A stretch of DNA of 64,000 bases. Source: Escherichia coli (GTDB lineage Bacteria > Pseudomonadota > Gammaproteobacteria > Enterobacterales > Enterobacteriaceae). Below the pieces are notes generated by a model. That model was not told the origin of the DNA and ran no database searches. It worked only from the letters and a program-made list of their open reading frames with translations. The number at the start of each line of letters is the position of its first letter. Position 1 is the stretch's first letter. Location: assembly GCF_003334405.1 (NCBI RefSeq), contig NZ_QOWM01000004.1; one strand, 5' to 3'. Below are positions 20,598 to 27,034 of this stretch, one piece after another. The position numbers and the translations under genes were made by a program.

Positions 20598-20800
20598 GAA
20601 AACACTCCTGCGGAGGCAAAATCGAATTTGCCTATTATGTCAGAAAAACGCCACAGACTGTATGCCACCTCGGGCGTAGCGCTGGGTCCTGCCTTTACAT
20701 GCCATATCCATCTTTCTATATTCAAAAATTGAATGAGTAATTCATAAAAATTCTGATATTTATAGCAAAAGTGGCGAACCACCCTTAATGGACGAATACT

Positions 20801-21766
20801 ATGGGCAAAGCAGTCATTGCAATTCATGGTGGCGCAGGTGCAATTAGCCGCGCGCAGATGAGTCTGCAACAGGAATTACGCTACATCGAGGCGTTGTCTG
20901 CCATTGTTGAAACCGGGCAGAAAATGCTGGAAGCGGGCGAAAGTGCGCTGGATGTGGTGACGGAAGCGGTGCGTCTGCTGGAAGAGTGTCCACTGTTTAA
21001 CGCCGGAATTGGCGCTGTCTTTACGCGTGATGAAACCCATGAACTGGACGCCTGTGTGATGGATGGTAACACCCTGAAAGCCGGTGCGGTGGCGGGCGTT
21101 AGTCATCTGCGTAATCCGGTTCTTGCCGCCCGGCTGGTGATGGAGCAAAGCCCGCATGTGATGATGATTGGCGAAGGGGCAGAAAATTTTGCGTTTGCTC
21201 GTGGCATGGAGCGCGTCTCGCCGGAGATTTTCTCCACGCCTTTGCGTTATGAACAACTACTGGCAGCGCGCAAGGAAGGGGCAACCGTCCTCGACCATAG
21301 CGGTGCGCCACTGGATGAAAAACAGAAAATGGGCACCGTGGGGGCCGTGGCGTTGGATTTAGACGGCAATTTGGCGGCAGCCACGTCCACAGGCGGAATG
21401 ACCAATAAATTACCCGGACGAGTTGGCGATAGTCCCTTAGTGGGTGCCGGATGCTACGCCAATAACGCCAGTGTGGCGGTTTCTTGTACCGGCACGGGCG
21501 AAGTCTTCATCCGCGCGCTGGCGGCATATGACATCGCCGCGTTAATGGATTACGGCGGATTAAGTCTCGCGGAAGCCTGCGAGCGGGTAGTAATGGAAAA
21601 ACTCCCTGCGCTTGGCGGTAGCGGTGGCTTAATCGCTATCGACCATGAAGGGAATGTCGCGCTACCGTTTAACACCGAAGGAATGTATCGCGCCTGGGGC
21701 TACGCAGGCGATACGCCAACCACCGGTATCTACCGTGAAAAAGGGGACACCGTTGCCACACAGTGA
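20801..21766 (+). CDS. iaaA: Isoaspartyl dipeptidase / L-asparaginase-type Ntn hydrolase IaaA
   Basis: ORF track 20801..21766, 321 aa, [19 protein letters not shown]...; contains the autoprocessing GTVGAVA region. Confidence 0.93.
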
Positions 21767-23624
21767 TGAACTTGATGCCGGTAATGTGCTGGCGGTTGAA
21801 AATCTGAATATTGCCTTTATGCAGGACCAGCAGAAAATAGCTGCGGTCCGCAATCTCTCTTTTAGTCTGCAACGCGGTGAGACGCTGGCAATTGTTGGCG
21901 AATCCGGCTCCGGTAAGTCAGTGACTGCGTTGGCATTGATGCGCCTGTTGGAACAGGCGGGCGGTTTAGTACAGTGCGATAAAATGCTGTTGCAGCGGCG
22001 CAGTCGCGAAGTGATTGAACTTAGCGAGCAGAACGCTGCACAAATGCGCCATGTTCGCGGTGCGGATATGGCGATGATATTTCAGGAGCCGATGACATCG
22101 CTGAACCCGGTATTTACTGTGGGTGAACAGATTGCCGAATCAATTCGTCTGCATCAGAACGCCAGTCGTGAAGAAGCGATGGTCGAGGCGAAGCGGATGC
22201 TGGATCAGGTACGCATTCCTGAGGCACAAACCATTCTTTCACGTTATCCGCATCAACTCTCTGGCGGGATGCGCCAGCGAGTGATGATTGCGATGGCGCT
22301 GTCATGCCGCCCGGCGGTGCTGATTGCCGATGAGCCAACCACCGCGCTGGATGTCACTATTCAGGCGCAGATCCTGCAATTAATCAAAGTATTGCAAAAA
22401 GAGATGTCGATGGGCGTTATCTTTATCACTCACGATATGGGCGTGGTGGCAGAGATTGCCGATCGGGTACTGGTGATGTATCAGGGCGAGGCGGTGGAAA
22501 CGGGTACCGTCGAACAGATTTTTCATGCACCGCAACATCCTTACACCCGTGCGCTGTTAGCTGCTGTTCCGCAACTTGGTGCGATGAAAGGGTTAGATTA
22601 TCCCCGACGTTTCCCGTTGATATCGCTTGAACATCCAGCGAAACAGGCCCCCCCCATCGAGCAGAAAACGGTGGTGGATGGCGAACCTGTTTTACGAGTG
22701 CGTAATCTTGTCACCCGTTTCCCTTTGCGCAGCGGTTTGTTGAATCGCGTAACGCGGGAAGTGCATGCCGTTGAGAAAGTCAGTTTTGATCTCTGGCCTG
22801 GCGAAACGCTATCGCTGGTGGGCGAGTCTGGCAGCGGTAAATCCACTACCGGGCGGGCGTTGCTGCGCCTGGTCGAATCGCAGGGCGGCGAAATTATCTT
22901 TAACGGTCAGCGAATCGATACCTTGTCACCCGGCAAACTTCAGGCATTACGCCGGGATATTCAGTTTATTTTTCAGGACCCTTACGCTTCGCTGGACCCA
23001 CGTCAGACCATCGGTGATTCGATTATCGAACCGCTGCGTGTACACGGTTTATTGCCAGGTAAAGACGCGGCTGCACGCGTTGCGTGGTTGCTGGAGCGCG
23101 TGGGCCTGTTACCTGAACATGCCTGGCGTTACCCGCATGAGTTTTCCGGCGGTCAGCGCCAGCGCATCTGCATTGCTCGCGCGTTGGCATTGAATCCAAA
23201 AGTGATCATTGCCGACGAAGCCGTTTCGGCGCTGGATGTTTCTATTCGCGGGCAGATTATCAACTTGTTGCTCGATCTCCAGCGTGATTTCGGCATTGCG
23301 TATCTGTTTATCTCCCACGATATGGCGGTGGTAGAGCGGATTAGTCATCGTGTGGCGGTGATGTATCTCGGGCAAATTGTTGAAATTGGTCCACGGCGCG
23401 CGGTCTTCGAAAACCCGCAGCATCCTTATACGCGTAAATTACTGGCGGCAGTTCCGGTCGCTGAACCGTCCCGACAACGACCGCAGCGTGTACTGCTGTC
23501 GGACGATCTTCCCAGCAATATTCATCTGCGTGGCGAAGAGGTGGCAGCCGTCTCGTTGCAATGCGTCGGGCCGGGGCATTACGTCGCACAACCACAATCA
23601 GAATACGCATTCATGCGTAGATAA
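21753..23624 (+). CDS. gsiA: Glutathione ABC importer ATP-binding protein GsiA (two fused ABC domains)
   Basis: Known N-terminus (M)[17 protein letters not shown] read from the in-frame TTG at 21753, inside track ORF 21645..23624; two Walker A motifs; overlaps the iaaA 3' end by 14 nt. Confidence 0.88.
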
Positions 23625-23643: not shown

Positions 23644-25182
23644 ATGGCAAGAGCTGTACACCGTAGTGGGTTAGTGGCGCTGGGCATTGCGACAGCGTTG
23701 ATGGCATCTTGTGCATTCGCTGCCAAAGATGTGGTGGTGGCGGTAGGATCGAATTTCACCACGCTCGATCCGTATGACGCAAATGACACGTTATCTCAGG
23801 CCGTAGCGAAATCGTTTTACCAGGGGCTGTTCGGTCTGGATAAAGAGATGAAACTGAAAAACGTGCTGGCGGAGAGTTATACCGTTTCCGATGACGGCAT
23901 TACTTACACCGTGAAATTGCGGGAAGGCATTAAATTCCAGGATGGCACCGATTTCAACGCCGCGGCGGTGAAAGCGAATCTGGACCGGGCCAGCGATCCG
24001 GCGAATCATCTTAAACGCTATAACCTGTATAAGAATATTGCTAAAACGGAAGCGATCGATCCGACAACGGTAAAGATTACCCTCAAACAGCCGTTCTCAG
24101 CGTTTATTAATATTCTTGCCCATCCGGCGACCGCGATGATTTCACCGGCAGCGCTGGAAAAATATGGCAAGGAGATTGGTTTTTATCCGGTGGGAACCGG
24201 ACCGTATGAACTGGATACCTGGAATCAGACCGATTTTGTGAAGGTGAAAAAATTCGCGGGTTACTGGCAGCCAGGATTGCCCAAACTGGACAGCATAACC
24301 TGGCGTCCGGTGGCGGATAACAACACCCGCGCGGCAATGCTGCAAACCGGTGAAGCGCAGTTTGCTTTCCCCATTCCTTACGAGCAGGCCACACTGCTGG
24401 AGAAAAACAAAAATATCGAGTTGATGGCCAGTCCGTCAATTATGCAGCGTTATATCAGTATGAACGTGACGCAAAAGCCGTTCGATAACCCGAAGGTCCG
24501 TGAGGCGCTGAATTACGCCATTAACCGTCCGGCGCTGGTGAAAGTTGCCTTTGCGGGCTATGCAACGCCAGCTACTGGTGTGGTACCGCCAAGTATCGCC
24601 TACGCGCAAAGTTATAAACCGTGGCCTTACGATCCAGTGAAAGCGCGCGAATTACTGAAAGAGGCGGGATATCCCAACGGTTTCAGTACCACGCTGTGGT
24701 CGTCACATAACCACAGCACCGCGCAGAAAGTGCTGCAATTTACCCAGCAGCAGTTAGCGCAGGTCGGGATTAAAGCCCAGGTGACTGCGATGGATGCCGG
24801 ACAGCGGGCGGCAGAAGTTGAAGGTAAAGGGCAAAAAGAGAGCGGCGTGCGGATGTTCTACACTGGCTGGTCGGCTTCAACCGGCGAAGCGGACTGGGCA
24901 CTATCGCCGCTGTTTGCCTCGCAGAACTGGCCACCGACGCTGTTTAATACCGCGTTTTACAGCAATAAACAGGTGGATGACTTCCTGGCTCAGGCACTGA
25001 AAACTAATGATCCGGCGGAAAAGACCCGCTTATATAAGGCGGCGCAGGATATCATCTGGCAAGAATCGCCGTGGATCCCGCTGGTGGTAGAAAAACTGGT
25101 GTCGGCACACAGTAAAAACCTGACCGGTTTTTGGATCATGCCAGACACCGGCTTCAGCTTTGAAGACGCGGATTTGCAATAA
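23644..25182 (+). CDS. gsiB: Periplasmic glutathione-binding protein GsiB
   Basis: ATG at 23644 gives [26 protein letters not shown] signal peptide, 512 aa; track ORF 23377..25182 is extended upstream. Confidence 0.93.
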
Positions 25183-25199: not shown

Positions 25200-26120
25200 A
25201 TGCTTAATTACGTTATCAAACGCTTACTGGGGTTGATTCCGACGCTGTTTATCGTCTCGGTGCTGGTGTTTTTATTTGTCCATATGCTGCCCGGCGATCC
25301 GGCGCGATTGATTGCCGGGCCCGAAGCTGATGCGCAGGTTATAGAACTGGTGCGTCAGCAGCTGGGGTTGGATCAGCCGCTGTATCACCAGTTCTGGCAC
25401 TATATCAGCAATGCTGTGCAGGGGGATTTTGGCCTGTCGATGGTGTCGCGTCGTCCGGTTGCCGATGAGATTGCCAGCCGCTTTATGCCAACGCTGTGGC
25501 TGACCATAACCAGTATGGTCTGGGCGGTTATATTTGGTATGGCGGCGGGAATTATCGCCGCCGTCTGGCGTAACCGTTGGCCGGATCGATTGAGTATGAC
25601 CATTGCGGTGTCGGGGATCTCGTTTCCGGCATTTGCTCTGGGGATGCTTTTAATTCAGGTATTCTCCGTTGAACTGGGCTGGCTGCCTACCGTGGGAGCA
25701 GACAGTTGGCAGCACTACATTTTACCCTCCCTGACGCTCGGCGCGGCAGTGGCCGCCGTGATGGCGCGCTTTACCCGCGCGTCGTTTGTCGATGTTTTAA
25801 GCGAAGATTATATGCGTACCGCGAGGGCGAAAGGGGTGAGCGAAACCTGGGTTGTCCTCAAACACGGGCTACGTAACGCGATGATCCCGGTAGTGACCAT
25901 GATGGGCTTACAGTTTGGCTTTTTGCTCGGTGGTTCCATCGTTGTGGAGAAAGTTTTCAACTGGCCGGGACTTGGACGCTTACTCGTTGACTCCGTAGAA
26001 ATGCGTGATTACCCGGTGATTCAGGCGGAAATTCTGCTTTTCTCGCTGGAATTTATTCTTATCAACTTAGTGGTGGATGTGCTTTACGCCGCCATTAACC
26101 CGGCTATCAGGTACAAGTAA
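25200..26120 (+). CDS. gsiC: Glutathione ABC importer permease GsiC
   Basis: ORF track 25200..26120, 306 aa, DppB/OppB-type permease. Confidence 0.93.
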
Positions 26121-26122
26121 GG

Positions 26123-27034
26123 ATGCGACTATTTAACTGGCGACGTCAGGCGGTGTTAAACGCCATGCCACTGGTCAAACCTGACCAGGTACGTACACCG
26201 TGGCATGAATTCTGGCGACGATTTCGCCGTCAGCATATGGCGATGACCGCCGCATTATTCGTTATTTTATTGATTGTGGTGGCCATTTTTGCACGCTGGA
26301 TCGCTCCCTATGACGCCGAAAATTATTTTGATTATGACAATCTGAATAACGGACCTTCTTTGCAGCACTGGTTTGGCGTCGATTCACTGGGGCGTGACAT
26401 TTTCAGCCGTGTCCTGGTTGGTGCGCAAATCTCGCTGGCGGCGGGCGTGTTTGCCGTGTTTATCGGTGCGGCGATCGGGACGTTGCTGGGCTTGCTCGCT
26501 GGATATTATGAAGGCTGGTGGGATCGGCTGATCATGCGCATTTGCGATGTGCTGTTTGCCTTCCCGGGTATTTTACTGGCGATCGCTGTTGTTGCGGTGT
26601 TGGGAAGCGGCATTGCTAACGTGATTATTGCAGTCGCCATTTTTTCCATCCCCGCGTTTGCCCGCCTGGTGCGCGGCAACACGCTGGTGTTGAAACAGCA
26701 AACCTTTATTGAGTCAGCACGCAGTATTGGTGCCAGCGATATGACCGTTTTGTTGCGTCATATCCTGCCTGGGACCGTCTCTTCTATCGTGGTGTTTTTC
26801 ACCATGCGCATTGGTACCTCGATTATCTCTGCCGCCAGCCTCTCATTTCTCGGCCTCGGTGCGCAGCCGCCGACACCAGAGTGGGGAGCAATGCTCAATG
26901 AGGCTCGAGCGGATATGGTTATCGCGCCGCATGTCGCTGTTTTTCCGGCCCTGGCTATTTTTCTGACCGTACTGGCGTTCAATTTGTTGGGCGATGGTTT
27001 ACGCGATGCGCTGGATCCGAAAATTAAAGGATAG
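26123..27034 (+). CDS. gsiD: Glutathione ABC importer permease GsiD
   Basis: ORF track 26123..27034, 303 aa, DppC/OppC-type permease. Confidence 0.93.

Follow-up and report, generated by a model that had tools for sequence, protein, structure and literature searches.

The UUG start codon of gsiA lies within the 3' end of iaaA in Escherichia coli, in an overlap that probably arose by loss of the iaaA stop codon

The gsiA gene of Escherichia coli very probably is translated from a UUG codon located inside the 3' end of the upstream gene iaaA, using a Shine-Dalgarno (SD) sequence in the last iaaA codons of what we take to be a polycistronic iaaA-gsiABCD mRNA, and the 14-nt overlap of the two genes would be an evolutionary by-product. 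The TTG start and the overlap are already known, as the reference annotation has contained them since 2014 and start-site profiling was published in 2016; the sole addition of the present analysis is the stop-loss origin of the overlap, a small evolutionary footnote. The window, which is the whole 64-kb stretch of DNA that was analysed, is annotated as the E. coli moeBA / iaaA-gsiABCD / pdeI region. The initial annotation had placed the gsiA start at a TTG at 21753, overlapping iaaA by 14 nt, and these coordinates are exact in the sequence, the open reading frame (ORF) list and RefSeq (Table 1).

At the junction, the 3' end in the iaaA frame reads ...CGT GAA AAA GGG GAC ACC GTT GCC ACA CAG TGA, while the gsiA frame from 21753 reads TTG CCA CAC AGT GAT GAA CTT GAT GCC GGT and encodes (M)PHSDELDAG. 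According to the ORF list, this TTG is in frame with the remainder of gsiA. RefSeq/PGAP gives identical coordinates for both genes, in a strain of which the locus is numbered base for base as the window. The 18-nt block GTTGCCACACAGTGATGA is invariant in five E. coli, a divergent Escherichia, E. albertii and three Citrobacter, and the junction is present at 95% identity or more in all 5,426 complete E. coli genomes.

The identity of both proteins is clear. IaaA matches the NCBIfam equivalog NF007589 / PRK10226 over its full length (714 bits against a cut-off of 567, residues 1-321 of 321), and GsiA matches the equivalog NF007613 / PRK10261 over the entire profile (1376.3 bits against a cut-off of 1077, residues 1-623 of 623), with gsiB for the binding protein and gsiC and gsiD for the permeases directly 3' of it. 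Compared with the EcAIII chains in PDB entries 2zak, 1k2x and 2zal, IaaA is identical apart from one residue. The window codes for proline at iaaA codon 147 (position 21239; Pro147 in FSTPLRYEQ), in contrast to the serine of crystallised EcAIII (FSTSLRYEQ), and its base at this position is not that of the reference strain either.

Table 1 Features of the iaaA/gsiA junction and its neighbourhood. Positions are those of the window, except for the regulator genes, which are numbered within their own loci; TetRP, tetracycline-inhibited ribosome profiling.
Feature	Coordinates	Strand	Basis or remark
iaaA CDS, isoaspartyl peptidase / EcAIII, 321 aa, stop TGA at 21764..21766	20801..21766	+	ORF list, RefSeq, NCBIfam, PDB
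IaaA C-terminal extension KGDTVATQ, 8 codons, lineage-specific	21740..21763	+	junction comparison
gsiA Shine-Dalgarno AAAGGGG, within iaaA codons 314-316; 6-nt spacer 21747..21752	21740..21746	+	anti-SD duplex energy
gsiA initiation codon TTG	21753..21755	+	sequence, annotation, TetRP, homologous codons
iaaA/gsiA overlap, 14 nt; gsiA in the +1 frame relative to iaaA	21753..21766	+	invariant in Escherichia and Citrobacter
GTG, 2006 K-12 start codon, now Val12; rejected as the start	21786..21788	+	TetRP, SD, relatives
gsiA CDS, 623 aa, fused double ABC ATPase	21753..23624	+	NCBIfam equivalog, annotation
gsiB	23644..25182	+	annotation; spacing +19 nt
gsiC	25200..26120	+	annotation; spacing +17 nt
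gsiD	26123..27034	+	annotation; spacing +2 nt
MurR/RpiR-type regulator, locus L040	1043..1931		
MurR/RpiR-type regulator, locus L048	827..1853		
MurR/RpiR-type regulator, locus L067	917..1910		
MurR/RpiR-type regulator, locus L072	1007..1967		

The gsiA frame is open upstream to 21645, and it contains an ATG at 21645, an ATG at 21654 and a GTG at 21735 before the TTG, as well as a GTG at 21786 and an ATG at 21819 after it. It had been proposed that the GsiA N-terminus is reachable solely from the TTG. A protein of the PHSDELDAG type does need the TTG at 21753, but other in-frame starts exist and the choice is not forced by the sequence alone. Among the six in-frame candidates, the TTG has the best anti-SD pairing (-7.8 kcal/mol; the other five range from 0.4 to -3.0), and its AAAGGGG element, with a 6-nt spacer, falls within the 5-9 nt distance considered for an NTG start codon.

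To this we added a comparison of 80 loci with GsiA relatives, one genome per species in a set without Salmonella and many other close relatives, in which each junction was dissected and the iaaA stop was found by walking the frame from the start of the iaaA match. The codon homologous to the TTG is the initiator in 25 of these loci. It is TTG in seven (the divergent Escherichia, E. albertii, three Citrobacter, Superficieibacter and Pseudocitrobacter), GTG in nine (Enterobacter, Lelliottia, Phytobacter, Kosakonia, Pluralibacter gergoviae, Siccibacter and others) and ATG in nine (Leclercia, Cedecea, Rahnella, Serratia oryzae, Mixta, a Pantoea and others), and none of the 25 carries CTN, TTA, GTA, GTC or GTT there. 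TTG, GTG and ATG would specify Leu, Val and Met internally; switching among them at one position therefore indicates a true start, and gsiA is a worked example of how such switching pinpoints a genuine non-AUG start. In nearly all 25 loci, the homologous codon also has the strongest SD among the candidates (-5.5 to -11.7 kcal/mol), with one clear exception in Rahnella (L034) and two loci (L005 and L015) in which another candidate ties or slightly exceeds it. At the position equivalent to the SD, the relatives have TAAGGAG or TAAGGGGG, with pairing of -8.5 to -11.3 kcal/mol.

These SD sequences of the relatives also point to the origin of the overlap. In most Enterobacteriaceae, IaaA ends with ...GIY(R/Q)E-TAA and is 312-313 aa long compared with 321 aa here, and gsiA starts 9-11 nt past the stop. 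Salmonella IaaA is presumably 313 aa long with the stop retained. TAA-ending iaaA genes in the same register are found in Leclercia, Enterobacter, Lelliottia, Phytobacter, Superficieibacter, Pseudocitrobacter and Siccibacter, and in these relatives the TAA sits inside the gsiA SD (gaaTAAGGAG or gaaTAAGGGGG). The junction of the relatives is thus GAA-TAA-GGRG, whereas Escherichia and Citrobacter have GAA-AAA-GGRG, of which the AAA corresponds to 21740..21742, as seen when Superficieibacter (GAATAAGGAGACGCCGTTG) is set against Citrobacter (GAAAAAGGAGATACCGTTG). With AAA in place of TAA, IaaA runs on for 8 codons to the first TGA in its frame. The extension is limited to 8 codons because the conserved His-Ser-Asp codons of gsiA supply this TGA across Ser4-Asp5 (aGT GAt).

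By parsimony, the overlap would be derived, with a T-to-A substitution at 21740 in the Escherichia/Citrobacter lineage having turned the ancestral iaaA stop TAA into AAA, after which IaaA would have read 8 codons further to the TGA provided by gsiA. Loss of an upstream stop codon with 3' extension is a known route to bacterial gene overlaps. The distribution of the two junction types suggests a recent by-product of stop loss, restricted to Escherichia and Citrobacter, and not a conserved design. The conservation of the IaaA tail is explained by its overlying gsiA signals, in that K-G lies over the SD and V-A-T-Q-stop over gsiA codons 1-5, while the variable D/E and T/A/S lie over the spacer. 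PDB entry 2ZAL has chain B deposited for residues 179-315 only, and a beta chain ending at 315 would fit, if loosely, with a dispensable IaaA tail.

Elsewhere, the spacing of the two genes varies. Cedecea has an overlap of -1, Erwinia and Rahnella one of -4 and a Pantoea one of -8, gaps of +9 to +19 occur in Pantoea, Mixta and Serratia, and the genes are 30-110 nt apart in Burkholderiales; iaaA and gsiA are commonly close in Enterobacterales, but the -14 overlap is not conserved. The IaaA tail and the junction are labile, with independent extensions giving -8 in L063 (Pantoea sp. 1.19), -4 in L028 and L029 (Erwinia) and -1 in L024 and L025 (Enterobacter sp. Ag1 and Cedecea), near position 3001. 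We also considered an IaaA-GsiA fusion produced by a +1 frameshift across the A-rich GAA-AAA-GGG and rejected it, as inspection of this stretch revealed no recognisable shift site. Since most relatives have TAA at exactly that codon, a conserved IaaA-GsiA fusion is excluded.

One stop-codon substitution can make a gene overlap, which warns against reading each overlap as designed translational coupling. Coupling of iaaA and gsiABCD had been inferred in the initial annotation from the overlap, and this over-reads it. An overlap by itself does not imply coupling. Here, -14 is outside the efficient range, and the TTG has a good SD of its own, so that independent initiation is possible. Under strict coupling, translation of gsiA would need iaaA-translating ribosomes, either because these terminate at the TGA at 21764 and back-scan or re-initiate at the UUG, 11 nt 5' of it, or because they unfold the start region. 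We regard strict coupling as a real possibility, but one that the evidence leans against. The geometry is suggestive, with co-directional genes, a start no more than 11 nt from the upstream stop and an SD inside the upstream ORF. In addition, the native overlapping E. coli pairs tested were strictly coupled and SD motifs aid re-initiation according to the Huber 2019/2023 studies, and a weak UUG initiator could gain from a locally delivered ribosome.

However, the pairs tested for strict coupling had overlaps of -4 or -1. A spacing of -8 to +10 is treated as predictive of termination-reinitiation by Huber et al. (2023), who regard long phase-1 overlaps (-11, -14, ...) as uncommon leftovers (PMC10666635), and the iaaA/gsiA spacing of -14 lies beyond that range. 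According to the review of Brown and Wade (2025), coupling is best at -4 to +3 and drops faster with overlap than with gap (PMC12548453); in the Tian and Salis series, as covered in that review, coupling was absent at -25. No stable structure over the ribosome-binding site that might hide the TTG or the SD was found in the fold of 21700..21810, of which the minimum free energy is -31.4 kcal/mol compared with a shuffle mean of -27.5 (z = -1.18), with 26 of 200 shuffles folding as well or better; without significant structure at the start, there is therefore nothing for an unfolding mechanism to relieve. A 'terminator-like' match at 21765..21748 was discarded, being on the minus strand and dependent on G-T pairs. 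The -7.8 kcal/mol SD at its optimal spacing also allows de novo initiation, and the restriction of the -14 overlap to Escherichia and Citrobacter likewise speaks against strict coupling.

The ancestral iaaA-gsiA spacing falls within the range of +9 to +12 at which 203 E. coli gene pairs form a peak (PMC10666635), and the stop loss may have made re-initiation less efficient instead of giving rise to it. In the reading that we prefer, with a UUG start served by its own SD, AAAGGGG and its 6-nt spacer would direct initiation at 21753 on the presumed single iaaA-gsiABCD transcript. Ribosomes translating iaaA would end 11 nt past the first UUG base and may aid gsiA by re-initiation or by keeping the site unfolded, while the gsiA SD should also permit independent loading of 30S subunits. 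Some input from iaaA-translating ribosomes to gsiA initiation is plausible.

Ribosome profiling at initiation sites, the experiment by which the initial annotation would have had its start checked, was published in 2016. Nakahigashi et al. (2016) mapped the starts of E. coli K-12 genes by tetracycline-inhibited ribosome profiling (TetRP), in which the signal consists of read 3' ends at +15/16 from the P-site codon (PMC4909307). In their Table S2, yliA (gsiA) has a new initiation site at 866743 (U00096.2) with TTG, a shift of -33 from 2006 and a New_2014_diff of 0, and their Table S3 shows that the left end, 866776 in 2006, had already become 866743 in the 2014 record (U00096.3 867520..869391) (PMC4909307). 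The TetRP depth is 46.3/140.5/70.6 at the TTG as opposed to 0/0/2.98 at the 2006 GTG, in a gene entry that was not hand-checked by the authors ('6. nt') (PMC4909307). The signal is thus at the TTG, with almost none at the downstream GTG. The 'N'-peptide found' column is empty for yliA (PMC4909307), which is uninformative for a poorly expressed gene. In the accessible part of the PMC11005335 supplements, which hold independent initiation-profiling and N-terminomics data, gsiA has no entry.

Because the overlap brings iaaA ribosomes close to the gsiA start, their contribution to this signal has to be weighed. A ribosome terminating at the iaaA TGA is ~8 nt from the TTG signal and is separable. 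A ribosome in the iaaA frame with GTT at 21752 in the P site has its 3' ends ~1 nt from the initiation signal, making some contamination possible. The peak at the TTG, which is 46- to 140-fold over the mean coding depth, should exceed the elongation signal expected on a modestly expressed gene.

The profiling bears directly on a start at the GTG at 21786, as in the 2006 K-12 annotation, which would give a protein of 612 aa and no iaaA overlap. In its favour, this start was official until 2014, GTG initiates translation more often than TTG and GsiA is least conserved over its first 11 residues; still, we consider it highly improbable, given the near absence of TetRP reads at the GTG, its SD pairing of -3.0 kcal/mol and an NCBIfam equivalog profile that spans GsiA residues 1-623. 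Furthermore, many relatives (e.g., L003, L005, L007 and L018) have GTA, GTT or GTC at this +33 position, so that the codon varies synonymously and behaves like an internal Val. A start further 5' in the open frame, at GTG 21735, ATG 21654 or ATG 21645 with an iaaA overlap of 32 to 122 nt, would use canonical start codons in a frame open to 21645 but is the least credible of all, in view of SD pairing of only -1.5 to -3.0 kcal/mol, replacement of GTG 21735 by CGC-GAA in the divergent Escherichia (L003) and E. albertii, absence of ATG 21645 from E. albertii, in-frame stops just 5' of the gsiA start in several relatives (e.g., L011 and L012) and a TetRP screen that took in in-frame NTG codons within 60 nt and picked the TTG over the GTG at -18. 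The ATG at 21819 (+66) was rejected as a start as well, as it is GAA or GAG in Citrobacter and has a poor SD, and TetRP favours the TTG. The TTG is more than a chance choice because it has the best anti-SD pairing, its homologous codon is the initiator in 25 other loci, it lies in the invariant 18-nt block and TetRP places the start there. Taken together, the start at TTG 21753 is well supported by annotation, TetRP and comparative evidence.

Beyond the junction, gene order is conserved across classes. iaaA is directly 5' of gsiA in 67 of the 80 loci (Gamma-, Beta- and Alphaproteobacteria), and gsiB, gsiC and gsiD follow in the same order in at least 75. The exceptions to the iaaA-gsiA linkage include two loci with paralogous transporters (L080 and L081) and one with no upstream sequence (L055). 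The two paralogous loci, from Achromobacter pulmonis and Bordetella genomosp. 5, respectively, have the order B-C-D-A and lack iaaA, and their proteins are only 24-44% identical to GsiBCD; a true iaaA-gsiABCD locus (L050) is present in Bordetella genomosp. 5 as well. The conserved order argues for a functional link, in line with the iaaA-gsiABCD operon already described. The 'peptide salvage unit' suggested in the initial annotation is likewise consistent with that operon and with the linkage seen in 67 of the 80 loci.

EcAIII hydrolyses beta-aspartyl peptides and asparagine. Parry and Clark reportedly found in 2002 that ybiK (iaaA) is CysB-regulated and tied to glutathione use, and Suzuki et al. 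are said to have defined YliABCD as a glutathione importer in 2005. With regard to glutathione import, the iaaA of the operon has been called 'an ORF of unknown function' (PMC10355420), and the same paper cites Suzuki et al. (2005) for the glutathione import activity of Gsi. The conserved linkage leaves a modest question, namely the role of IaaA for the transporter. One speculative answer, to which we give little credence, is that iaaA-gsiABCD is an ancient cross-class module whose physiological substrates might extend to beta-aspartyl (isoaspartyl) or other iso-peptides, hydrolysed in the cytoplasm by a dedicated enzyme, IaaA, and that, separately, the stop loss (from +10 to -14) may have retuned the ratio of IaaA to GsiA synthesis. 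If this were true, 'glutathione importer' would describe only part of Gsi function.

Several further observations concern the surroundings of the operon. A co-directional gene for a MurR/RpiR-type regulator (HTH + SIS) lies directly 5' of iaaA-gsiABCD in Achromobacter, Paraburkholderia, Comamonas and Methylobacterium, according to NCBIfam matches below the curated cut-offs (E 1e-16 to 1e-21), while the Enterobacterales instead have a divergent moeA 5' of iaaA. A sugar-phosphate-type sensor beside a peptide importer is unexpected. In the E. coli strain ExPEC (NZ_CM172609.1; locus L002, 2854..4948), gsiA is annotated as a 510-aa CDS plus a partial pseudogene, representing either a disrupted ATPase or an assembly error. 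In the window, a candidate operon promoter lies on the plus strand at 20694..20722, ~80 nt 5' of the iaaA ATG, with a sigma-70-like TTTACA-17-TATATT (10/12); the region contains just as many such matches as shuffling predicts.

The TTG start with a 14-nt overlap is uncommon, yet within recognised classes. The 62 annotated genes of the window start with ATG in 55 cases, GTG in six and TTG in one, which is gsiA, and in the 2006 K-12 record only 81 genes started with UUG. Overlaps occur in nine of 38 co-directional neighbour pairs, four of them -4 and three -1, leaving iaaA/gsiA (-14) and ybjC/nfsA (-17) as the only ones longer than 4 nt. The latter pair (ybjC, 45146..45433; nfsA, 45417..46139; plus strand) resembles iaaA/gsiA in being co-directional with a long phase-1 overlap and differs by its ATG start. 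From the current K-12 annotation of gsiA (U00096.3 867520..869391; RefSeq PGAP 'glutathione ABC transporter ATP-binding protein GsiA', 623 aa), the window shows no difference in start, length, overlap or N-terminus. The pairs trpE-trpD and trpB-trpA, as well as hyfH-hyfI and menD-menH (Huber et al.), are, like iaaA/gsiA, co-directional operon neighbours in which the downstream ribosome-binding site lies in the upstream ORF and a ribosome can reach the start from the stop. Those pairs overlap by -4 or -1, whereas iaaA/gsiA has a 'long phase-1 overlap' of -14 and a UUG initiator. Finally, the stop-loss overlaps described in general surveys (Fukuda 2003; Johnson & Chisholm 2004) arose by the same route that a single TAA-to-AAA substitution at 21740 would represent; the extension here is of 8 codons only, and iaaA/gsiA would be one more instance.
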